This document shows positions 17,344-50,142 of a stretch of 51,211 nt of DNA, piece by piece (within the stretch, counting starts at the first letter, position 1; every line of letters starts with the position of its first letter). Origin of the DNA: an uncultured Chitinophagaceae bacterium (GTDB taxonomy: Bacteria > Bacteroidota > Bacteroidia > Chitinophagales > LD1); contig CAZKHZ010000001.1 in assembly GCA_964552715.1 (NCBI GenBank), forward strand, positions 1-51,211, read 5' to 3'. A program made the position numbers and the translations under genes. The notes beneath the pieces were generated by a model, which searched no databases, was not told the origin of the DNA, and was given only the letters and a program-made list of their open reading frames with translations.

Positions 17344-19020
17344 CTATTTTTTTGCTGCAAGCAGCTTATCAATGTTCTCTTTTTCCCGAGTATCGTGTAT
17401 CTCTTTGGTAAGTGCTTTTTTGTAGGCAGCAGCGGATAGTGTTGCATTACCTTTCATACCATAGTACTTTCCAATCCAATAATGTGTTTCCCAAAACTCG
17501 GGATTGCAGGCTTCAAATTGTTGAATAAAGACTGCTTCATTTTGTAAAGGTTCTTTGTCCTTTACTGCCTGCTTTATCTGCTTGCGTAATGTTTTGAATT
17601 GCTGAAATTTTTTCCAGTCATCGGAGCGTAAAAAAGAGTCTTGCGGAATTACTAAATCTGCTTCGGCAAGTGATTTGCTTGCGGTGCTGCCTGATGCTTG
17701 GGCAAATACTTTATTCAAATCATAACATACAAATGCACCCAACTGATAAGGGTTTGCAGACACCCACATCAATCTTTTTTCGGGTTGAAAAATTACTGCA
17801 TGATGGCTGATGAGTTGATTCATTGCTTTCTCATTGCCCATGCCGATGTTCTTTTCGCCTAATCCTTTTTGGCTGCGCAAAATATTTGCTGCTTGCGCAG
17901 GTGTCAACGTTAATGAATTGCCTATCAATTCATTCATCCTGTTATAGCGATACATGGACGATGAAGTGGCGATGTTTTCTATGTTATCCTTGTCGTTTTT
18001 GAAAGAATCACTTTGATAGTGATTGGCACAAATAATGAGATTGGAATCAGGCAACAGCAACACTGTTTTTGCAACACTCTTTTCTATCAATGCCGTTGTG
18101 CCATCGGCTGCTGAGCCAACCATTATTGTTTCACACACAAATGATTGATACTTTTTTGCGATAGCAAATGCTTCATCAATATTGCTTGCATACTGCAAAA
18201 TCTGCCTTGCAATAATTGCAATGGGTGTGGTTGCTTTTGTTGGCACATCCGACTTTGCTGCATTGATGGTAACCGTCAAACCTTTTTCGTTCATGCCCGA
18301 AACACATCCCATAAACCCGCCCCAGGTAACGATTGCAAAGCGATGTCCTGCATCTGGTTTGCAGAAGTAAACGATTTTATCTTCTGCAAATTTATCGCCC
18401 AAGCTAAAGTCTAAGTTGCGCCCAATAAGCAGGGAGGAATCTTGTGTGCGATTGCCCCAAGCACCGAATGATGTGCAACCAACCAAGGCTAAACTTTGCA
18501 GTGCATGACCAATGTCGTGCGCGGCATGATAATTCAACATGCGGTCGTAGGCTGGTGCTATGTAATTGAATTCATCGGGTGCCGAAAACGATTCACCATA
18601 GATTTCTAGCTTGTTTTCTTCAGGAAAATGTTCGTCCAATTCGCGGTTGAAAATGCGCGTTACAAATGCCAGAAAGGTGAGGTAGCTTTTGCTTGATACT
18701 AACTCGTCCACCTGCGCTACAAAATATTCTTCTTGCAAATACAGTAATTCTTTGTTCAGTTTACCGGTGATAACGCCCCGCTCAAATGCTTCGCCTTCCA
18801 CGTATTCTTCCCATATACCATAATCATTTTTGCGCAGCCAATTGTTGCCTATGCGGTAATGATTTGCAGCAAGCGTTTCGCGCTTCAATGCAAGCGATGC
18901 TTTGTTTGCTACTTCGGGTATTTGCGGTGCAAGCCCCCAGCGGATGTATGCAAAAAGTACAAACAACAACAGTGCAGCAAAGCCAACAACGTAAGCAAGA
19001 ATCTTAATCAGTTTGCGCAT
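17344..19020 (-). CDS. C45-family (acyl-CoA:6-APA acyltransferase-like) autoproteolytic hydrolase/acyltransferase, membrane-anchored
   Basis: The preferred start is ATG at 19020 (MRKLIKILAYVVGFAALLLFVLFAYI, a TM anchor). LVGCTSFGAWG fits the Ntn nucleophile-Cys context of peptidase family C45. There is a C-terminal TPR-like tail. The gene overlaps the upstream gene by 17 nt. Confidence 0.65.
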   Translation of the reverse strand: MRKLIKILAYVVGFAALLLFVLFAYIRWGLAPQIPEVANKASLALKRETLAANHYRIGNNWLRKNDYGIWEEYVEGEAFERGVITGKLNKELLYLQEEYFVAQVDELVSSKSYLTFLAFVTRIFNRELDEHFPEENKLEIYGESFSAPDEFNYIAPAYDRMLNYHAAHDIGHALQSLALVGCTSFGAWGNRTQDSSLLIGRNLDFSLGDKFAEDKIVYFCKPDAGHRFAIVTWGGFMGCVSGMNEKGLTVTINAAKSDVPTKATTPIAIIARQILQYASNIDEAFAIAKKYQSFVCETIMVGSAADGTTALIEKSVAKTVLLLPDSNLIICANHYQSDSFKNDKDNIENIATSSSMYRYNRMNELIGNSLTLTPAQAANILRSQKGLGEKNIGMGNEKAMNQLISHHAVIFQPEKRLMWVSANPYQLGAFVCYDLNKVFAQASGSTASKSLAEADLVIPQDSFLRSDDWKKFQQFKTLRKQIKQAVKDKEPLQNEAVFIQQFEACNPEFWETHYWIGKYYGMKGNATLSAAAYKKALTKEIHDTREKENIDKLLAAKK

Positions 19021-20533
19021 TGGCAGCAAGTATTTTGTTGATGAGGTATTCTTTTCCAAGCAGCATGGTGCAGGTAATCACGGCACTTACCGAAACACCC
19101 AACACGCCATGAAGGTTCACGTTTTGCCCAGTAAGCAATAGATTCGGCACTTTTGTTTTTGATGCAATCATAGTTTTCATCGGGTCGTTGAAATCTTTTA
19201 CAATGCCATACATGTTGCCATCATAGCTGCCAATGTAGTCGCGATAGGAGAGGGGCGTGGAGGTATAATAGGACTGTATGCAATCTTTAAAACCCGGAAA
19301 TTTTGTTTCTATTTCATCAAATAATCTTTCGGCTTTTCGCTTTTTGAATTGCTGATAGTCTTCGCCTCTTTCGCTTTCTTCCAATGTAGTGTTGGTGGTG
19401 TTTTCCCACTGTTGCACTTCATCATATCGCATGTAACTCAATATTGCTAAGCCTTGCGTATGTTCTCTGTGTTTGCCATGCGCACATTCAAATATTGCGA
19501 AGCACTGAGGCCAGTTATCATCGGTGTGCGCTAATATATTCCACACATCATCTTGTGCAGAATAATAGTAATTGCGATTGCGATATTTCCACGAGTTGGG
19601 CTTCAGCACGATGTAGGCAACAAAAATGGAAACGGAATTTTCAAGACCCTTGATGCGGTTGCGATACACATTTCTAATTAAGTCTGTTTGCACCATATCC
19701 AGCGTTACCGAGGGGTGAATGTTGGAGATAAAAGTTTTGCCGTAAATCTTTTCATCGTTTTCGCAAAGCACATGGTCTATTTCATCGTTTTGCACCACAA
19801 ATCGCGTCACCTTTTTTTTGCGAAAAATTGTTCCGTTGTTTTCTTTTATCACTCGTGCTAGCAGCTTGGCAATTTGGTCGCCACCGGCTGTGCATTTCAT
19901 GGCACTTTCGATGTAGCTATTTACCACCAGCGCATGCACATACAAAGGTGTTTTGCCGCTAATGCCAGCATACACCATATTGGTTCCCGCCAACACATTG
20001 CGCAGCTTTTCATTATCGGTGAGCGCATCAAAATATTGCTTTGCACTTTGCATAAACAACGCTGGCTCGGGATATGAACCGATAGCTTTGAGGTTGTACA
20101 TCGGAATGTCGCGGCAGATGTTTTGAATATCGTTGCAATACTTTCTGATGCTAGCTTCTTCGGTTGGAAAATGCTCTAGCATTATCCTTATAAAGTTGTC
20201 GTAGCCCATGCCGTAGGGATATTCTTTGGTATCGTTTTTAAACATCACCACATCAAATCCTTCTTTGTCCATGCGGGCAAGTTCCAGCCTATCCATAATG
20301 CCGCAGTAGTTGAAAATCTGATACAGATTTTGCCCTTTTTCTAAGCCGCCTACGTAGTGCACACCAGTGTCAAACGTCACGCCATCGCGCTTAAAGGTTT
20401 GCAGGCTGCCGCCTATCTGTTCATTTTTTTCTATCACGCACACGCTCATGCCCTCTTTGCTCAAAATGGCTGCGCATATCAAGCCACCCAAGCCCGAGCC
20501 TATTATTACAACATCATATTTATTGTCAGCCAT
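19004..20533 (-). CDS. NAD(P)/FAD-dependent oxidoreductase, phytoene-desaturase (CrtI)-like
   Basis: The N-terminus YDVVIIGSGLGGLICAAILSKEGMSVCVIEKNEQIGG is a GxGxxG dinucleotide fold. The size (509 aa) and C-terminal LLLTGQNVNLHGVLG are typical of the CrtI/amine-oxidase superfamily. Confidence 0.8.
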   Translation of the reverse strand: MADNKYDVVIIGSGLGGLICAAILSKEGMSVCVIEKNEQIGGSLQTFKRDGVTFDTGVHYVGGLEKGQNLYQIFNYCGIMDRLELARMDKEGFDVVMFKNDTKEYPYGMGYDNFIRIMLEHFPTEEASIRKYCNDIQNICRDIPMYNLKAIGSYPEPALFMQSAKQYFDALTDNEKLRNVLAGTNMVYAGISGKTPLYVHALVVNSYIESAMKCTAGGDQIAKLLARVIKENNGTIFRKKKVTRFVVQNDEIDHVLCENDEKIYGKTFISNIHPSVTLDMVQTDLIRNVYRNRIKGLENSVSIFVAYIVLKPNSWKYRNRNYYYSAQDDVWNILAHTDDNWPQCFAIFECAHGKHREHTQGLAILSYMRYDEVQQWENTTNTTLEESERGEDYQQFKKRKAERLFDEIETKFPGFKDCIQSYYTSTPLSYRDYIGSYDGNMYGIVKDFNDPMKTMIASKTKVPNLLLTGQNVNLHGVLGVSVSAVITCTMLLGKEYLINKILAANAQTD

Positions 20534-20849
20534 TGAATTTCAATCAAAGGGTTTTTTTAGGTAAACGCGCAATATGTTTTTGCACGCCACAAAATTGCAC
20601 TTTTTATTAAAGCATCTTGAATGATATGTGAGGTGAGGTAAGAAAATATGGGAAATGGGGAGGAAGGGGGTGTGTTGATTGGCTGATTACGGATGTCGTT
20701 ATGCAGAGGAGCAAAGCATCTCAATTCGCTCCAATAGAGATACTGCCTTCTTGATGTCGACAGGATCTGGGTTTGTCATTTCAACAGGTATGAAGCTTGC
20801 GCGAGTTTAAGTTCTTAGGAATACAATGCAAATGACATTGAGCATCCTC

Positions 20850-20885
20850 CCAAAAACCACCGCAGACTTCTGTAATCTGCGGTGG
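20850..20885 (-). terminator. Rho-independent terminator after the 20905..21660 gene
   Basis: On the minus strand, CCACCGCAGA-(9 nt)-TCTGCGGTGG forms a perfect 10-bp stem followed by TTTTTG. It starts 20 nt after the TAG stop. Confidence 0.8.
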
Positions 20886-20904
20886 TGTAATTGTTTGCAA
20901 TGCG

Positions 20905-21660
20905 CTATGCAAAAATAGCAGACACAGAGTCGCTGAGCAGACTAACGCCTGCCGAGTTGCTGGCATAAAAGTAGAAGTAGTATTTCTCGCCTGGTGTCAG
21001 GTTTACAAATCTTTTCTTCTTGTTTTTATTCCAATCGAACACTGCTACAACAGCTTGCCTAGTTGCAGCCGCAGCAATATTGTTGCCATCATCTAAAAGA
21101 ATAAACTGACCATTATTATTCAGGTAAACATTATCGGGCAGTGGCTCTCTGCGCGTCATGATGCAACCATAAAACAATGCCCCCGTCACCGTTTTACACT
21201 CCACCACCAACTCGCCAGTGCTAGCTCTTTTTACTTTGATGTTTGTTGGTTTTTCGGGCACTTGCGCAGACGAGCGCACTGCTTTTGTAGGTACAAAGCC
21301 AGCCAGTGTAATAATGTTTGCATCGCCCAACGCCACTGTGTCCACATATCCGGCAATGGAGTTCAGGCTGTTAATCAAAGTTGTTCGGGCGGCTAAAAAC
21401 GGACCCTTTTGCGCCAACCCGCCTTGCACATAAGCACCGCGCGTGTTTACGTAGGTAGTTATTTGAGCATAATATATCGGTTCGGGTATTGGCGGCATGG
21501 TAAATATGCCCGCATTATTAAATATGCCATCGCGCACGCCTACGGCAAATACATCTAGCTCGTCTTTTTTTATTCGGCTAAAGTTCAGTAAGCACCTTTG
21601 TTCTGTTAAGCTCATAAAATTTGTGTTTAGTAATGAGTGAAATTTATGTTGAAATGGCAT
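20905..21660 (-). CDS. hypothetical protein with C-terminal fibronectin-type-III-like domain
   Basis: Long ORF. The first ATG is at 21660, and ATG at 21615 (MSLTEQRCLLNFSRIKKDEL...) is an equally plausible start. The C-terminal half (PEKPTNIKVKRASTGELVVECKTV...GEKYYFYFYASNSAGVSLLSDSV) has an Fn3-like beta pattern. No signal peptide and no T9SS CTD are present. Confidence 0.6.
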   Translation of the reverse strand: MPFQHKFHSLLNTNFMSLTEQRCLLNFSRIKKDELDVFAVGVRDGIFNNAGIFTMPPIPEPIYYAQITTYVNTRGAYVQGGLAQKGPFLAARTTLINSLNSIAGYVDTVALGDANIITLAGFVPTKAVRSSAQVPEKPTNIKVKRASTGELVVECKTVTGALFYGCIMTRREPLPDNVYLNNNGQFILLDDGNNIAAAATRQAVVAVFDWNKNKKKRFVNLTPGEKYYFYFYASNSAGVSLLSDSVSAIFA

Positions 21661-21708
21661 GTTGTACACCAGCCATTGAATTTTAATTGCTTCGTTTATT
21701 AACCAAAA

Positions 21709-21980
21709 ATCAATACATGTTTACACAAAAGTGAAACATTAAAACACAGGCGTTAAACATGCTTACACAACCGTCAAACATTAAAGCGCGAAAGTCAAAC
21801 ATGCTTACACAACAGTCAAACATTAAAGCATTAGCGTTAAACATGTTTACACAACAGTCAAACATTAAAGCAATAGCGTTAAACATGTTTACACAACAGC
21901 CAAACATTAAAGCACAGCCGTAAATCATGTAATCATCACCATCAAACATTAAAGCGCAGCCATTAAACATGTAAACAACA
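21709..21980. repeat. tandem array: 13 copies of GTYAAACAT(G/T) in exact 21-bp register (6.5 x 42-bp unit)
   Basis: ACAT cores sit at 21715, 21736, 21757, 21778, 21799, 21820, 21841, 21862, 21883, 21904, 21925 (TCAT), 21946 and 21967. Every interval is exactly 21 bp. Alternate copies carry the palindrome TAAACATGTTTA. Confidence 0.9.
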
Positions 21981-21984
21981 CTTT

Positions 21985-22293
21985 TCATCTTTTTTGATTA
22001 GGGTTTTTGTCAGTTGATTTGTTGTTGTTGTTTCTCTCAACTGCTTCAACAATTTCTTTGTTTGTATCAACCCATTGCGATACTTCTGTAAATAAGGTAA
22101 AGGCAGTTAAGTTGTGTGCCTTCATAATTTTTTCAAGAAACTTAAACGACATACTTTGCTTTCCATTTTCAATTCTGTTTATGTATGGAGGATCCTTGTC
22201 AATGCGGAATGCAAATTTTCTTTGCGTTTCTTTATTTTGCATGCGTTTATGTTTTAAAAACAAACCAATTACTGTAGAACAAGTGCAAATCAT
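21985..22293 (-). CDS. XRE-family helix-turn-helix transcriptional regulator
   Basis: 102 aa. IGLFLKHKRMQNKETQRKFAFRIDKDPPYINRIENGKQSMSFKFLEKIMKAHNL matches the XRE HTH pattern (...RxxxxxSQxxxAxxxxxxxxxISxIExGKxxxxxxxLxKIxxAL). The C-terminal tail is Asn/Lys-rich. Confidence 0.75.
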   Translation of the reverse strand: MICTCSTVIGLFLKHKRMQNKETQRKFAFRIDKDPPYINRIENGKQSMSFKFLEKIMKAHNLTAFTLFTEVSQWVDTNKEIVEAVERNNNNKSTDKNPNQKR

Positions 22294-22695
22294 AACTGTA
22301 ATTTTTTACAAAAAGAATAAGGATTTCTTGAATTAGTATTAACTTATTTAGTCAATACTAAAAAAATGACAAATCCATGACAATTGGATTTACAGTTAAG
22401 CTTGTTATACAAGGAATTTTATTTGTGTGTTGAGCAGCATTTTAGAAGATTGCAATTAGTTTATTCAAAACAACCTACGGTAAGCTCATTACAATTTTGG
22501 TGCAAAGATAGATGACAGCATCTTTTCAGTTTTTGTAATTATGAAGCAAGAATCAAATATCGGGGCGATAATTTTGATGCTTTATTAGTCAGCATTTTAA
22601 GTTCGTTTGTTACACAAGTCATGGTAAACTTGCCAGAGTCTTTCTCTTTTATAAAAGCAGCGAAAAAAAGATGCGTAAGAAACGATTAACGCAAC

Positions 22696-25600
22696 TTATT
22701 TTCTCATCGTCAATAGCGAATACTTCGATTTGCTGCCACAAAGATGTTGCTGCGCAGAATGATTAAATTGTGCAGCGGCAGTTTTTATTGTGGAGAAATG
22801 CTTGTCGGCAGCGTCATTTTTTATAATGAAACACAACACCCCATCTTCGCTTAATTGAGCAAATAACTTGTGTAACAAGGCGTGTTGTTTGTCCTCTGAT
22901 GCAGCAAAGAAAAAGTCGTGTATTATAAAAGTGTTGCTTGCTGCAAAGTCATATTCAAACACATCGGCACACACAAAATTCAGTTCCTCTTTTTTGGAAT
23001 AGCAATTGATTGCCGTGTTAGTTTTTTCTTCATTAATGTCAATAGCCGTAATGGTTTTTGTTCTGTTCAAAAAGTGCAGCATGTATGCGTTGAAGCCATA
23101 GCCACAGCCGAGTTCGGTGATGTTGTTACCCTGTTTGGTGAGGTTGTTTAGTGCGGCATAAAAATCTGTTTGGCGCGCGGCTTTATATGCCGCCCACTCC
23201 ACGCTCCAGCCTTTATAGTTGTAGTTTGCCATCAACCGCTGCTTGAAATATTGCGGTGTTTCGAGTTCGCTTTTCAGCGATTCGTATTCTTGCTTAAAGT
23301 ATTTTGAAATGCCTTTTGTGCGCGCTGCATAACCTTCGCCAAAGCTCGTGTTGCTTGGTGTGATGCGCGGCAAAAATTTCATCGTCATGGTTCCGTTGAA
23401 AAGCATAAAATCGCCCTTGCCCATTGTGTCGCCCGTGCCATGCAACACCAATGGCACAATATCAAGTTGTAGCTTTTCGGCAAGAAAAAACGCGCCTTTG
23501 TGAAAGCGTTTCATCACCCCGTCTGGCGTGCGTGTACCTTCGGGAAACACCGCAATAGAATAACCTTGTTGCAAGATGCTCTCTAACTTTTCGGTGGCTG
23601 GGTCCACGCCTTCCATCACCGGATAATATTCTGCCATTTGCACCACCTTGCCAAACACAGGCGAGTGATACACCCATTTGTTGGTGAGCAAAATCATTTT
23701 TGGATGCTGCATCGCTACCACCAAAATATCGAGGAAAGACATGTGATTGGCGATGATGATGGCGGGCTTAGAAAAGTCCATCGTTTGTTTATTAATATGC
23801 ACTTTGCGCACATTCATCATGATGTAAACCAGCGAGCCTACAAACTTACTGAGCAAGAAATGATAAGCGAGTTTGCGGTATTTCTTTTTTGGAAAAGGAA
23901 ATACATACAACAACAAAAAGCCTGAAAGCGTAAGCACAAATGCGCCAAACACAAAGTAAGAAAACGCAAACACCGAAAGCATCAGCGAGGGAATAGTCCA
24001 AGGTGCAAGCCCCTTTTCTTTTCTGCTTTGTATAAAATAATTGAAGAGCAAAGGCTGGATAGTTTGCCCGATAAACACCACACACAAAATGCCGATGATG
24101 GAAATAGATGCAATAGATTTTAGTGCAGGGTGCTTTGCAAATATCAACACGCCTAAGCCCAGCAGCGTGGCGATGGCGCACAAGAAAATAGAAACTTTAT
24201 GCGAGCCAAAAACGGGCTTGTTCTCTTTGTATTTTTGCGTCAATCCATCGGTGATGAAGATGCTAAAATCGTCTCCCAAGCCAAAGATGAAAGTGGAGAT
24301 AATGATGTTGATGATATTGAAATGCAAACCGGCAATACCCATGATGCCCAATATCCAAATCCATGAAATCAACATGGGTAAAAAGGTGATGATTGCCAAC
24401 TCGATTCTGCCATAGCCGAGTATCAAGGCAATGCCTACAATAAAAACGGTGTAGGCAAGTATGGCGTTGAAGTCTTTGTAGATAACATCAATGAAGGATG
24501 CGGTGATAATTTGCTTATCAAGAATCGCAACACCGGGAATGGTTTTTAGTTGCTCGTAGAACACCTTACGGTTTGCTTTATCAACGGTTACGGAGTTGAT
24601 AATGGCATCAAAGTTTTTCGCTTTAATAAAAAATTCGCTACCCAAAGTTTGAATCAAAAAAGATTCATCTTCTGCATTCATCATTTCAAAATCCGAATTC
24701 ATTAAACCGTTAAAACGGTTGAAAGCATTAGCCGAAAATCCTTGTTGTTTCCCAGCTTCTTTCAAATGTTGTAGCAGTGCGATTTTCTTTTCTTCCGTCC
24801 AAAAGTTTTTCCAGCGCAATAGTTTTTGTTGCTGCTCTTTTTGCGAAACAATTACGGCACTCATGCTCGAAAATTGTTTCACCAAACCCTGCTTTTGTGC
24901 AGTTTCAAAAGCCTTTACTAAGGCTTCGTTTTGTTGCAGCAACGCTTGTTTTGTAGTTCCAGTGGCGGCAATAAAAACTGTTTTGGATGTATCGTTTTGC
25001 AGCCACATAATTTCACGCTCACTCTCTTTCAAGTGTTCGTTCATAAAGTTCATACTGTTCATGTCTGTTTCAAACGAAACCTTGCCTGCATAGTCGAAAA
25101 AGAAAATAGTAAGCGCGAGAATTACCAAAGAAAGCAACACCGTTTTTTTGGTAGAAAGTGGCGGTAGATTGCTAATACTGCGCTCAATAAAATTGGCTTT
25201 GCTGTGTGTAAAATCTGGCACAAAATGTGGCAAAAAGATAAGCGTGAACACAGCCGCACCGCACAAGCTTAAACCCGCAAACAAGCCGAAGTCGTTGAGA
25301 ATAGGCGACTTCAACAACACTAATGCAAGGAAGGATGCAATAGTGGTGAAGCCACCCAAGGTAAGCGGCAAATACAACTCGGCAAGTGTTTGTCGAATGT
25401 CCTTACAATGTTTGTAGTGGCTGAAAAAATGGAGGCTGTAATTCAGCGCAATGCCCAACACAATGCTGCCCGATGCAATTGCAATGCTGGAAATACTTCC
25501 TTTAATTAAATAGATACATGCCACAGAGAATAAGCCACCAAAAAGCACAGGCAGCAGCATCACAAACGGCACACGCTTTTTACGAAAAAACAACCACACC

Positions 25601-26433
25601 AACAGCAACACCGAAATGATGGTGATAGACAATGTAAGTTGTGTATCGTGTTTGATTTGTCGTGCATTGCTCACTGCCACTGCGGTGCCACCGTAGTAAA
25701 ACACTTTTGCTTCGGGGAAGGTAGTTTTTAGCTGCGCAATTTTATTGTCGAGCGCATCTATCAACTTGCCGTTTTCGCCAGTCTCATTGCCTGCGTTGGT
25801 GGGTGTGATAAACAAAAACAAACTCTTGCGCTCATCGCTCATCATGTAGCCATCATACAGTTCAAACTTATCGTTCAGTTGCAGCGATTGTAGTTTCTTC
25901 AACGCCAGCAGCGACATGCCCATTGGGTCATCGGCAATTACTTTTTTTGTTATAAAACCTTCGGCAGTGGTAAGTGCTTTGTAATTATTTGCAAGCGTTT
26001 TAGTGAGCTGTTCCTTAGCAATTAGGGAATCTATTTTTGGGTAATCATTTTCATTCAAAAACAGTGGCAGATTATTGATGACAACATCATACACCTCCAT
26101 TAGCGCGTCTTCATCCACACGCGTCTTTATTTCTTTTACTTGTTGTAGATTAGCAAGCGTAGCTAGGCTGTCAGCCACGGCAATCAACACATTGGGGTTT
26201 TCGGTATTGGTTTTTACTTTCACCACTACCTTATCATAAAGCGATGTGCCCGATAATAATTCGTTGGTTTTGGCAGCAGCTTGGCTGCCAGGCATCATGC
26301 GCGTAATATCTTCTTCTAATTGAATGCGCGATGCAAGAAATGCAAGCGTACCAAACAGCAGCAACACAAGGATGAATAGTTGCGGCTTTCGTTTGTTGAA
26401 ATAAGTGAAGGTGTTTAAAAGGAATGTCAACAT
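22696..26433 (-). CDS. trifunctional MMPL/RND-type transporter - lysophospholipid (PlsC-type) acyltransferase - class I SAM methyltransferase fusion
   Basis: 1245 aa. The N-terminal ~800 aa contain two TM bundles separated by soluble loops (MMPL-like). These are followed by IIANHMSFLDILV (H-x4-D) and VFPEGTRTP (PlsC blocks I and III, near 23.5-23.8 kb). The C-terminus ITELGCGYGFNAYML is a SAM-binding motif I, near 23.1 kb. Confidence 0.85.
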   Translation of the reverse strand: MLTFLLNTFTYFNKRKPQLFILVLLLFGTLAFLASRIQLEEDITRMMPGSQAAAKTNELLSGTSLYDKVVVKVKTNTENPNVLIAVADSLATLANLQQVKEIKTRVDEDALMEVYDVVINNLPLFLNENDYPKIDSLIAKEQLTKTLANNYKALTTAEGFITKKVIADDPMGMSLLALKKLQSLQLNDKFELYDGYMMSDERKSLFLFITPTNAGNETGENGKLIDALDNKIAQLKTTFPEAKVFYYGGTAVAVSNARQIKHDTQLTLSITIISVLLLVWLFFRKKRVPFVMLLPVLFGGLFSVACIYLIKGSISSIAIASGSIVLGIALNYSLHFFSHYKHCKDIRQTLAELYLPLTLGGFTTIASFLALVLLKSPILNDFGLFAGLSLCGAAVFTLIFLPHFVPDFTHSKANFIERSISNLPPLSTKKTVLLSLVILALTIFFFDYAGKVSFETDMNSMNFMNEHLKESEREIMWLQNDTSKTVFIAATGTTKQALLQQNEALVKAFETAQKQGLVKQFSSMSAVIVSQKEQQQKLLRWKNFWTEEKKIALLQHLKEAGKQQGFSANAFNRFNGLMNSDFEMMNAEDESFLIQTLGSEFFIKAKNFDAIINSVTVDKANRKVFYEQLKTIPGVAILDKQIITASFIDVIYKDFNAILAYTVFIVGIALILGYGRIELAIITFLPMLISWIWILGIMGIAGLHFNIINIIISTFIFGLGDDFSIFITDGLTQKYKENKPVFGSHKVSIFLCAIATLLGLGVLIFAKHPALKSIASISIIGILCVVFIGQTIQPLLFNYFIQSRKEKGLAPWTIPSLMLSVFAFSYFVFGAFVLTLSGFLLLYVFPFPKKKYRKLAYHFLLSKFVGSLVYIMMNVRKVHINKQTMDFSKPAIIIANHMSFLDILVVAMQHPKMILLTNKWVYHSPVFGKVVQMAEYYPVMEGVDPATEKLESILQQGYSIAVFPEGTRTPDGVMKRFHKGAFFLAEKLQLDIVPLVLHGTGDTMGKGDFMLFNGTMTMKFLPRITPSNTSFGEGYAARTKGISKYFKQEYESLKSELETPQYFKQRLMANYNYKGWSVEWAAYKAARQTDFYAALNNLTKQGNNITELGCGYGFNAYMLHFLNRTKTITAIDINEEKTNTAINCYSKKEELNFVCADVFEYDFAASNTFIIHDFFFAASEDKQHALLHKLFAQLSEDGVLCFIIKNDAADKHFSTIKTAAAQFNHSAQQHLCGSKSKYSLLTMRK

Positions 26434-47664: not shown

Positions 47665-50142
47665 ATGCGTAAGACAATTTTCTTCTGCACACTAATATTG
47701 GCAGTTTGCTCGGTAACATTTGGACAGAGCAAAGACAAAGGCAAGGACAAACCTGCCAAAGAAGCTACAAAAAAAGAAGCAAAACCTGCCAAAGAAGCTA
47801 CAAAAAAGGAAGCACAACCTGCTGCCGAAAAAGTAGATGTAAAAAAGGCTGAAAAGAGCGATCCAAAGCCTAAGTCTAAAGACAAAAACAAAACAGAAAA
47901 GCGCACCGTAAGTGTAAAGCGTTATCTTAAATTAGGCGACCGCTTCTTTGCAGAGTCTTCTTATTACACAGCCGCAGAATACTATAAAGAAGTAGTGCGC
48001 GAGAACCCTGAAAACAGATATGCTAACTATTGGTTGGGTGTAAGTTTGCTTTACTCAAGAGATTATGAGCGTGCTGAAACTTTCTTTGAAAAGTTTGGTA
48101 GCATCAAGGCAGGCGAAAAAGACAACGCAAAAAAATGGGCAGAGGAAGACCAAAAATTGTTTGATAAATACAATTACTTCTATGGCGAGGCATTGCACCG
48201 CAATGGAAAGTTCGAGCAAGCTATTCAAAAGTATAATCGTTTTAAAGGAGAGTACAATAGAGACGATAAAGAAAAATGGGTGAAGTTGGCAAATGCTGGT
48301 GTTAAAGGTGCCGAATATGCACAAAGTGCACCAACAGCTAAAATCAAAGCGAAACTTTTGAACAATTTGGTAAATCGTTCTTACAACGAGTTGTCTCCAG
48401 TTGCAGGCGACAATGGTGTACTTTACTTTTCTTCTTTGCCATCTGATACTTTGATTTTTGAAAACAAAAAGAAAACACGCCCTGAGTATAAAATTTACAC
48501 AGCATCTTTAGTTGATGGCGATTGGGGTAAACCTGCATTGATTAAAAATGATGACATGAATACAGCTAAGTATGATGTTGGAAATGGTTCGTTCAATGCT
48601 GATAAATCTCGTTTTTATTTCACTAAGTGTTTGGAAATGGAAGATGCACGTTCTTTGTGCAATATCTTCGTTGCAAATGTAAAAGTTGGTAAATTCAGCA
48701 ATGTGCAAAGATTGTTGGAACCTATTAATGCTAAAGAACAATACACTAGCACACATCCAACAGTTCGCACAGGTGCTGATGGAAGAGAGATTGTTTATTT
48801 TGCCAGCGACCGCACCGATGGAAAAGGCGGCTTAGATATTTGGTTCACCAGTCGTATCGGTAATGGCGAATACACTGCACCTAAGTTAGTTGGTGGTCCT
48901 ATAAACTCTGCTGGTGATGAAGTAACTCCTTTTTGGGATGCTACTAACAATACTTTGTATTTTTCCTCTAATGGACACCCTGGCATTGGCGGATTTGATG
49001 TGTTTGCTTCTGCCGAAAAACCAGATTACGGTTGGGAAGAGCCTCGCAACTTGGGCAAATCTCTAAACACAGGTTATGATGAATTGTATTACAATGTTGT
49101 AGCAGACCAAAGTGGTGGATTCTTTACATCAAACAGACCGGGTAACAGAAAATTGAATAGCATCGAAAGTGCTTCTGATGACATTTATAAATGGGAGCTT
49201 TTCAACTATGCTGTTGAAGGTTTTGCTTTTAAAGATGGCGAACAGGATGCTGGTTCATTGGAAGGTGCGCAGTTCAAATTGTATAAGAAAGCTGCCGATG
49301 GCACAAGAGAGCTGATTTCAGTTGATACTACTTCACCTGCTGGTCAGTACTTCTTTAAATTGAAGCCTGATGAGGATTATGAAGTAGAGGTAATTCGCCC
49401 AGGTTTCAAAGCTACGGTTGAAGCTATTTCAACACGAGATTTGCCTATGGAAGACACCATCAACAAAAATATCGGTGTACGTAAATCGGCTTATGTTTCT
49501 TACGGTTCGGTATCTGAAGAAGGTAAGCCTGATGTGAAGTTGGATGATGTAATTTACACAGTAATTGAATTGAGCGGCAGTGGAGTTCAACGCACTATTG
49601 CAAATGGTAAAACCGAAAAGAATCAAACAAACTATGCTGTTGATTTAGATCGCGATAAGGACTATAAAGTTGTTTTCCGTAAAAATGGATACTTCTCTAA
49701 AACAATGCAGATTTCAACCAAAGGTTTAGGCAACAGAGATTCAGTTTTGAATAATGTAACCTTAACTAAATTAGAGTTGAACAAAGATTACACATTGAAA
49801 AATGTATTGTATGAATTTGGTAAAGCAACGCTTACAGAATCTTCAAAAGAAGTATTGGACACCTTGCACGCCATATTGGTTGAAAACCCAACTTTCGTTA
49901 TTGAGTTGAGCTCTCACACCGATGCCATTGGTTCGGATGCAGCTAACCAAAAACTGTCTCAAGACCGTGCCGAAAGTTGTGTTGCTTACTTAATTACTAA
50001 AGGAATTGCAAAAGATAGAATGGTGCCTAAAGGCTATGGAGAAACCAAACCAAAAGCACCAAACCAAACAGACGAAGGCAAAGACAATCCTGAAGGACGT
50101 GCGCTAAACAGACGTACAGAATTCAAAATCTTGAAGAGCTAA
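47665..50142 (+). CDS. OmpA-family protein with Lys-rich linker, TPR, TolB-like (PD40) beta-propeller repeats and C-terminal OmpA/peptidoglycan-binding domain
   Basis: It has a signal peptide and KPAKEATKKEA repeats. TPR-like helices are present (YYTAAEYYKEV..., YANYWLGVSL...). PD40-like segments include ELSPVAGDNGVLYFSS, THPTVRTGADGREIVYFASDR and GDEVTPFWDATNNTLYFSSN. The C-terminus is NVLYEFGKATL...LSSHTDAIGSDAANQKLSQDRAESC...NRRTEFKIL. Confidence 0.88.
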   Translation: MRKTIFFCTLILAVCSVTFGQSKDKGKDKPAKEATKKEAKPAKEATKKEAQPAAEKVDVKKAEKSDPKPKSKDKNKTEKRTVSVKRYLKLGDRFFAESSYYTAAEYYKEVVRENPENRYANYWLGVSLLYSRDYERAETFFEKFGSIKAGEKDNAKKWAEEDQKLFDKYNYFYGEALHRNGKFEQAIQKYNRFKGEYNRDDKEKWVKLANAGVKGAEYAQSAPTAKIKAKLLNNLVNRSYNELSPVAGDNGVLYFSSLPSDTLIFENKKKTRPEYKIYTASLVDGDWGKPALIKNDDMNTAKYDVGNGSFNADKSRFYFTKCLEMEDARSLCNIFVANVKVGKFSNVQRLLEPINAKEQYTSTHPTVRTGADGREIVYFASDRTDGKGGLDIWFTSRIGNGEYTAPKLVGGPINSAGDEVTPFWDATNNTLYFSSNGHPGIGGFDVFASAEKPDYGWEEPRNLGKSLNTGYDELYYNVVADQSGGFFTSNRPGNRKLNSIESASDDIYKWELFNYAVEGFAFKDGEQDAGSLEGAQFKLYKKAADGTRELISVDTTSPAGQYFFKLKPDEDYEVEVIRPGFKATVEAISTRDLPMEDTINKNIGVRKSAYVSYGSVSEEGKPDVKLDDVIYTVIELSGSGVQRTIANGKTEKNQTNYAVDLDRDKDYKVVFRKNGYFSKTMQISTKGLGNRDSVLNNVTLTKLELNKDYTLKNVLYEFGKATLTESSKEVLDTLHAILVENPTFVIELSSHTDAIGSDAANQKLSQDRAESCVAYLITKGIAKDRMVPKGYGETKPKAPNQTDEGKDNPEGRALNRRTEFKILKS
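47749..47826 (+). repeat. 33-bp in-frame tandem repeat (2.4 copies) encoding KPAKEATKKEA
   Basis: AAACCTGCCAAAGAAGCTACAAAAAAAGAAGCA (47749..47781) repeats at 47782..47814 with one substitution. A partial third copy CAACCTGCTGCC follows. Confidence 0.9.

Follow-up and report, generated by a model that had tools for sequence, protein, structure and literature searches.

An array of phased 21-bp repeats between an XRE regulator gene and a fibronectin type III protein gene, one example of an apparently undescribed DNA element in Bacteroidota

The stretch of DNA analyzed here (hereinafter, the window) is a 51,211-bp contig of an uncultured Chitinophagaceae bacterium (CAZKHZ010000001.1; 40% G+C), in which a long array of direct repeats is flanked by two genes; several proteins encoded in the neighborhood carry type IX secretion system (T9SS) sorting tails. 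In the direction of transcription, a regulator gene, the array and a gene for a 236-aa protein form a module, all on the minus strand. The first gene of this module (21985..22293, minus strand) encodes a 102-aa XRE-family helix-turn-helix (HTH) regulator, as an earlier reading of the letters alone (hereinafter, the sequence-only reading) had recognized and as is confirmed by a match to Pfam HTH_3 (E = 1.8e-8); the exact sequence of this protein is also found in a public protein collection. The array (21710..21982, no strand assigned), delineated using Tandem Repeats Finder, a phase table, box matches and per-column information, comprises 13 units of 21 bp, or 6.5 units of 42 bp. The list of open reading frames (ORFs) includes a stop-free frame of 92 codons (21710..21988, minus strand), also pointed out previously, that runs through the array and has an ATG overlapping the XRE stop codon as ATGA. 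The gene downstream of the array (20905..21615, minus strand) encodes a protein with a helical N-terminal half and a C-terminal fibronectin type III (Fn3) domain. The start of this gene is most likely at position 21615 (MSLTEQ...), a start that is found in the public protein collection and aligns with the homologues, so that about 95 bp, and not about 50 bp as originally given, separate the array from this gene. An inverted repeat, AATGGC-N13-GCCATT (21653..21677, minus strand), which can be read directly in the sequence, is located between the array and this gene, and is also kept in two related loci, L014 and L015.

The array is real and far beyond chance, yet less regular than first described. 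Tandem Repeats Finder reports a repeat at 21715-21972 with a period of 42 bp, 6.1 copies, 82% matches, 0% indels and a score of 297, confirming the indel-free 21/42-bp periodicity, with 59% matches for the 21-bp sub-period. The trinucleotide CAT occurs 13 times at exact 21-bp steps, the first at 21716; the phasing claimed for 13 copies of ACAT thus stands for CAT, but ACAT itself occurs 12 times because position 21925 reads TCAT. Similarly, instead of thirteen exact copies of GTYAAACAT (plus strand), there are seven units with the exact motif and four more with one mismatch. The perfect 12-bp palindrome TAAACATGTTTA, previously attributed to the odd copies in general, is present in only two of the 13 units (at 21838 and 21880), and is degenerate in the remaining odd units (ACATGCTTAC, TCATGTAATC). 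What does hold is the division of each unit into a conserved box and a variable spacer: per-column information delineates a 9-bp box, GTYAAACAT, and a more variable 12-bp remainder, with all boxes in direct orientation.

The repeat is confined to this site. None of the 12-15-mers of the array is found outside of it within the 51-kb window, so the dispersal that the sequence-only reading had named as a possible objection is not seen there; the exact GTYAAACAT motif occurs elsewhere in the 51 kb only twice, which is below the chance expectation, and in the related loci 13-mer matches are not in excess beyond the arrays. A dispersed family of repetitive extragenic palindromes or minisatellites was rejected given that, in the 51 kb searched, the unit is confined to the array and the box is matched elsewhere no more often than expected by chance. 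A CRISPR array was rejected as well, given that the variable stretch is only 6-12 bp long and is itself repeated within the 42-bp super-unit; no cas families were detected by Pfam/NCBIfam in the nine neighboring ORFs scanned, which cover about 15-30 kb of the window. Among near-identical strains (L001-L010), the array is a hot spot of single-nucleotide polymorphisms (SNPs), with 19 variable columns in 279 bp vs. 3 in 481 bp of the flanks, and contains no indels, hence no frame-breaking ones.

The comparison covered about 30 distinct loci, each encoding a homologue with 28-100% identity to the 236-aa protein. In nearly all loci with sufficient upstream DNA, a tandem array is present directly 5' of the homologue gene, on the same side, comprising 5-22 units and separated from the gene by 30-460 bp. 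The units follow each other at a basic period of 21 bp (in one locus, 21.6 bp), and super-periods of 42, 63 or 84 bp occur as well. The unit sequences are unrelated between clades (for example, GATCTTCTGAACGGTTTCTAA, TTTTTCCTATAGGTGAAACCC, CAAGTATTCGGTAAACAGGAT and GTCAAGCCTTAAGTCGCAACG), whereas the period and the position are kept. The core motifs track the protein phylogeny: ATGTT is found in the window clade and the sister locus L017, an AGATCTG-like core in a large clade and CCTATAGG in another one, and the AGATCTG-like core is kept through its clade even though it is read in two different frames. Old, degenerate arrays were missed by Tandem Repeats Finder and were detected as autocorrelation peaks at 21, 42 and 63 bp; in these, a short box alone is kept at the exact 21-bp phase (AATRYATT, 19 times, in L021; AGATCAA in L047) and the spacer is randomized. 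The GT.AAACAT motif of the window follows the same pattern of a kept box and a varied spacer. In the approximately 22-unit array of L051, units of 21 and 22 bp alternate (spacings of 22, 43, 65 and 108 bp; mean 21.6 bp), a pattern that breaks any reading frame and fits two turns of B-DNA.

The arrays also change in length. Two loci with identical flanks and an identical downstream protein carry 12.3 units (L049:7663-7921) and 5.3 units (L050:1111-1222), a difference of 147 bp, i.e., seven units, which is direct evidence of copy-number change in 21-bp steps. Two contigs of one metagenome-assembled genome (CANKAM01) carry different modules, one with an AATRYATT-type array and a LytTR gene (L021), the other with a CTTAAG-type array and a GerE gene (L022), indicating that the family is multi-copy, with locus-specific arrays. 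In many cases (L005, L007-L010, L016, L018, L053-L057), the contig ends 180-500 bp 5' of the homologue, in or at the edge of the array; this suggests that short-read assemblies systematically break there, and the true array lengths may be underestimated. Unrelated repeats are found further upstream of some arrays, namely a 28-bp repeat in 9.9 copies with palindromic CACGTG/CATGTG cores (L043:920-1196), a 60-bp repeat in 5.4 copies (L044:5-329) and a GC-rich palindromic repeat of 135 bp in 2.1 copies (L049:7126-7403). Nothing similar to the arrays was found in Rfam, in Pfam or in literature searches on 21-bp repeats, heptapeptide repeats and phased arrays in Bacteroidetes/Flavobacterium. The array in the window is one example of a widely conserved, apparently undescribed DNA element in Bacteroidota.

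In most loci with enough flanking sequence, a gene for a small DNA-binding regulator adjoins the array, and the family of this regulator varies. An XRE/HTH gene on the same strand is found in the window, L014, L015 and L017 (in L014 and L015, orthologues of the XRE gene of the window sit ahead of the array), and a divergent XRE gene in L020. The neighbor belongs to the GerE/LuxR family in L019, L028 and L022, and ORFs homologous to this group (grouped by BLASTP, with no Pfam scan) are present in L043 and L038. LytTR genes adjoin the arrays of L021, L031, L047/L048, L049 and L057, and an AraC gene that of L051. On long contigs, the modules have ordinary chromosomal neighbors without rep, par or transfer genes.

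Just 5' of the arrays in 15 loci, the gene strand carries a conserved motif of 10 nt, CGTTCTTTGA (L019:2555, L028:2212, L030:82, L032:100, L033:152, L041:815, L043:1313, L038:532, L021:2439, L022:2466, L031:942, L020:2585, L023:2430, L047:7686 and L051:7320), frequently within the longer pattern TTGACA-N21-CTTTAC-N4-CGTTCTTTGA. There is no clean fit to the Bacteroidetes -7 box (TAnnTTTG), to sigma-54 or extracytoplasmic function (ECF) sigma factor promoters, or to the CTnDOT att core (GTANNTTTGC). CGTTCTTTGA may be a promoter or a regulator site. In the XRE clade (L014, L015 and the window), a similar GCGTCTTTTTGTAAAA or TTCTTTTTGTAAAA is found just 5' of the XRE start codon; in the window, the candidate promoter element TTATTCTTTTTGTAAAAAAT (22301..22320, minus strand), about 10 nt 5' of that codon, is a possible counterpart of CGTTCTTTGA. 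This arrangement suggests that a single promoter-like element might drive the regulator, the array and the gene, or the array and the gene. A simple consensus scan found no intrinsic terminator on the gene strand between the XRE gene, the array and the downstream gene. The distance from the end of the array to the start codon is only 32-35 nt in L017 and L038, where the array hence must be transcribed with the gene. A second motif, TTAACCCTTTAATA, with variants, occurs 10-25 nt 5' of the homologue start in one large clade (L019, L027, L028 and L030-L033), and is missing in the window clade.

We propose, with a probability of roughly 0.5, that the array acts in cis as a helically phased track of multiple protein-binding sites within the transcription unit formed by the XRE gene, the array and the downstream gene. 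A period of 21 bp corresponds to two helical turns, so that all ~13 boxes are placed on one face of the duplex; two-turn spacing is commonly used by AraC-type and dimeric HTH regulators. The invariant two-turn period, together with a box that survives the decay of the spacer, is what a row of sites bound by a sequence-specific protein would be expected to show. The observations from which this proposal starts are the array itself, the conservation of its position and period, the box-plus-spacer pattern, the turnover of copy number and sequence, and the lack of a coding signature. Also in its favor are the regulator genes adjoining the arrays in most loci, the core motifs that track the protein phylogeny, the lack of an intrinsic terminator in the consensus scan and the confinement of the unit to this one site of the window. 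The preference of the sequence-only reading for a cis-acting DNA array over a peptide gene is likewise supported by the orthologous loci, in which period and place are kept and the unit sequences are unrelated. From here on, we infer protein binding, the identity of the binder and repression as the outcome. Under the proposed mechanism, a locus-specific DNA-binding protein would coat the track cooperatively, the adjacent XRE protein being the prime candidate in the window. The extended complex of protein and DNA formed in this way would control, as a roadblock or as a silencing filament, whether transcription from the upstream promoter reaches the 236-aa gene, and the number of units, as a variable number tandem repeat (VNTR), would determine how strong this effect is.

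The geometry of the array resembles that of known operators, among them those of the LytTR regulators, which bind 9-bp direct repeats 12 bp apart, that is, with a 21-bp period (PMC6193735). LytTR operators of the AgrA, ComE and HdrR/BrsR type thus share with the array the 9-bp box, the 12-bp spacer, the direct orientation and the placement on one face, and at least five of the related loci (L021, L031, L047, L049 and L057) have a LytTR gene next to the array. However, LytTR operators are pairs of repeats just 5' of the -35 element, whereas the window has 13 units (up to ~22 elsewhere) in an apparently transcribed region. The geometry is that of a LytTR operator but the regulator is not, the one in the window being HTH_3/XRE, with the array between two same-strand genes. 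The Cro/CI-type operators of the XRE family are similar in that the XRE gene is adjacent and that two units contain a 12-bp palindrome of suitable size. These operators, however, comprise one to three palindromic sites of 14-20 bp that overlap the promoter, in contrast to the 13 phased and mostly non-palindromic units located 3' of the regulator gene in the window, and similar arrays occur without an XRE gene. The whole-unit variation between strains (L049 vs. L050) is reminiscent of VNTR contingency loci; the known promoter VNTRs have units of 1-10 bp and alter promoter spacing or the reading frame, whereas the array unit spans two helical turns, so that changes in copy number keep both the helical phase and the frame.

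Several observations weigh against a protein-binding track. Regulators from four unrelated families adjoin the arrays, and the track might instead be bound by some other protein, the Fn3 protein among them. The narrower proposal of the sequence-only reading, that the array is an operator of the adjacent XRE dimer, is weakened by similar arrays adjoining GerE, LytTR and AraC genes without any XRE gene. Nor are palindromes, which would be expected for XRE or GerE dimers, enriched across the arrays compared to shuffled units (Fisher P = 0.21; P = 0.028 for the window), and no convincing isolated copies of the box were found in the promoter regions of the regulators, that is, the XRE gene and those of the related loci. 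To our knowledge, 13-22 sites are far above the number used by known operators. Furthermore, pure DNA binding does not explain a bias toward stop-free frames: one sense (gene-strand) frame is stop-free in 20 of 25 arrays, compared to 10 of 22 in the antisense direction, 15 of 22 when the arrays are reversed, 12 of 22 when they are complemented and 7.9 of 22 expected under column permutation. The column-permutation P value of ~5e-9 was discarded as too lenient, given the reversed and complemented controls, and the excess of stop-free sense frames is real but modest.

This bias also speaks for the best of the alternatives, namely that the array is translated, which we consider unlikely. The product could be a functional heptad-repeat peptide (92 aa in the window, with NMFNAxALMFDCCV repeats), possibly one that pairs with the long helix in the 236-aa protein. 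Otherwise, the frame could be a sequence-indifferent upstream ORF (uORF), coupled to the XRE gene via ATGA, with its translation needed for downstream expression. In each of the three loci of the XRE clade (the window, L014 and L015), the frame that begins at ATGA is open, although column permutation leaves any given frame open in only about 10% of arrays; no frame-breaking indels occur among the strains of the window locus, gene callers annotate the array ORF in sister contigs, and most frames encode two adjacent hydrophobic residues per heptad. However, every one of the six frames is interrupted by stops in five of the 25 arrays (L020, L021, L045, L047 and L051), and the alternating 21/22-bp period of L051 is incompatible with a frame; frame breaks in orthologous arrays had been set beforehand, in the sequence-only reading, as evidence against a peptide. 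Among the 20 open frames, eight have an in-frame ATG, six only GTG or TTG, and six no start codon of any kind. A check by codon position, also proposed at the outset, yields no coding pattern either between units (126/119/139 changes at the three positions, i.e., no bias) or among the strains of the window locus, where 18 SNPs are nonsynonymous and one is synonymous, with 11, 7 and 1 at the first, second and third codon positions, the third being the least variable. In the L021 box, AAT-RYA-TTC, the "third" positions are kept and the first and second vary. The register of the open frame relative to the DNA core differs between the window and L014 (where ATG-TTT-TAA contains a stop) and likewise between L019/L030/L043 (..DL..) and L028/L031 (RSS.R). 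Several frames contain Pro or Gly in every heptad, a homologue search with the 92-aa peptide came back empty, and there was no match for it in Pfam, NCBIfam, PHROGs or PADLOC.

Given the frame-breaking changes in orthologous arrays, the peptide fails as a general explanation; for the XRE clade, where the ATGA frame stays open in every locus, it is weakened but conceivable, as is a sequence-indifferent uORF. The frame at 21710..21988 is probably no conserved peptide gene and at most a translated spacer or uORF. The array ORFs of the window, L014 and L015 begin with the same 10-mer, ATGAAAAGTG (21979-21988 of the window, minus strand), which is also found in the distant L051 (7352-7361), 32 nt after CGTTCTTTGA, where it opens an ORF of only 16 codons; this sharing could be due to chance or could be a relic of a conserved uORF start. 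In L032 (217-1137), the array frame runs stop-free into the frame of the downstream 236-aa homologue, giving an open stretch of 306 codons, a continuity that may be a coincidence.

Slightly less likely still is that the array functions as RNA, such that its 21-nt repeats, in the mRNA of the XRE gene or in a leader, would be bound by an RNA-binding protein or an antisense RNA controlling the translation or stability of the downstream gene. The location of the arrays 3' of the promoter-like motif or of a same-strand regulator gene, the short distance to the start codon in L017 and L038, the failure to find flanking terminators and the strand-specific stop-free bias, which hints at the importance of the sense strand, are all compatible with this possibility. 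Nevertheless, it leaves a 21-21.6-nt period shared by unrelated units without a reason, the predicted structure of the window transcript does not exceed that of shuffled sequences (z = -1.07), a scan of 16 related loci (the window array was not included) yielded nothing credible in Rfam, and the ATGTT core of L017 is apparently on the strand opposite to the gene.

We find it improbable that the array is a selectively neutral minisatellite that arose by replication slippage in a permissive intergenic region. The different unit numbers between identical flanks (12.3 in L049, 5.3 in L050), the fast sequence turnover with its SNP hot spot and the frequent assembly breaks at the array are what such an origin would produce. 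Independent slippage, however, would not repeat the same period, position and similar length across loci encoding proteins that are 28-50% identical, and the conservation of the box in arrays with decayed spacers points to purifying selection on the box.

An iteron set or partition centromere of a mobile element, for which the contiguous ~21-bp repeats just 5' of a gene and the tyrosine integrase beside the module in L014, L019 and L035 could speak, is very improbable, as is, in a still weaker variant, intrinsic curvature as the signal: rep, parA/parM and relaxase genes were not found in any locus, the neighbors on long contigs are chromosomal, there are no plasmid, phage or viral-contig homologues, and, although small bends add in phase in any exact two-turn repeat, two approximate wedge models predict similar curvature for natural arrays and for arrays with permuted units (0.858 vs. 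0.879 and 0.926 vs. 0.918), with the window unremarkable.

The likeness to these elements is in the architecture. Plasmid iterons (R6K, RepFIB, P1) are, like the arrays, direct repeats of 17-22 bp, about two turns, directly 5' of a gene, and in both cases the period is constant although each element has a sequence of its own, so the geometry behind the term "iteron-like" in the sequence-only reading is sound. However, iterons need a Rep initiator, a winged-helix protein, and come with an AT-rich unwinding region and DnaA boxes. The protein encoded downstream of the array is helical with an Fn3 domain, gave no match to Rep or to a winged-helix domain and lacks plasmid homologues; the context is chromosomal, and neither of the accompanying features was identified at the array. 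ParR-parC (R1/pSK41) and the heptad arrays of the omega protein (pSM19035) are tandem repeats coated cooperatively by a small DNA-binding dimer encoded next to them, and the extended nucleoprotein filament also autoregulates the operon. These systems differ from the arrays in employing ribbon-helix-helix binders, repeats of 7-20 bp and a partition NTPase gene, none of which was seen at the array loci; in particular, a ParA, ParM or TubZ gene is absent from the neighborhood of the window array and from the related loci.

The protein encoded downstream of the arrays belongs to a sizeable uncharacterized family. A word-indexed search detected 57 homologues, and a search of 1.84 billion representatives yielded 150 clusters at E<1e-30; at E<1e-10 there are 903 proteins, part of which match through the Fn3 domain only. 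One family member (L056) comes from an isolate, the Flavobacterium sp. of GCA_053580895.1. No Pfam/NCBIfam family and no signal peptide were identified in the 236-aa protein. The AlphaFold2 model built with the family alignment (pLDDT 87) has a helical N-terminal half, including a long helix of ~50 residues (residues 45-95), and a C-terminal Fn3 domain. Searches for a function recovered Fn3 domains only (Foldseek against PDB and BFVD, and a PDB profile search), PHROGs gave a weak match to a tail-protein Fn3 domain and PADLOC none, and tblastn against 72,556 plasmids and 50,697 phages, as well as a search of viral contigs, found nothing.

In the window, at 17344-26433, the module stands between genes typical of a flexirubin/aryl-polyene-type pigment cluster, namely those for a 1245-aa MMPL-acyltransferase-methyltransferase fusion, a 509-aa CrtI-like oxidoreductase and a 571-aa C45 acyltransferase. 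The intergenic gaps on either side of the module are ~370 and ~400 bp, which, together with these surroundings, suggests that the module was inserted there. The closest relative of the window module, that of L014, adjoins a tyrosine integrase gene, and modules are flanked by such a gene in L019 and L035 as well. Another tandem repeat of the window, at 47749-47822 (33 bp, 2.2 copies, 95% matches, consensus AAACCTGCCAAAGAAGCTACAAAAAAAGAAGCA), is located within an 825-aa ORF (47665..50142) and is probably an ordinary coding repeat.

We place the array family with the phased multi-site DNA-binding arrays; the likelihood that it represents a distinct undescribed class of cis-elements is considerable. 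In a fuller and more tentative form, these elements might be viewed as long "two-turn tracks" (5-22 units of 21-21.6 bp), an unrecognized class in which a large Bacteroidota gene family has kept the same period, position and strand context, whereas the unit sequence and the regulator family are free to change. Each track would then support a locus-specific filament tuned by copy number, and, as the stop-free sense frame suggests, passage of ribosomes might be needed as well, making the element a combined DNA and translation switch.

At the practical level, the arrays break metagenome assemblies and draw spurious gene calls for repeat "peptides". The downstream family, with at least 150 clusters at 50% identity and without a Pfam model, appears to be placed under tightly guarded expression, which suggests that the function is costly or needed only under certain conditions. 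Should the arrays indeed work as protein-binding tracks, these bacteria would employ tens of phased sites in place of the usual one to three operators, and the architecture would be long-lived in evolution despite the replacement of site sequences and regulator families alike. The family would then be a natural experiment in the co-evolution of regulator specificity and site arrays, in the gating of transcription by cooperative filaments and in phase-neutral tuning by copy number.

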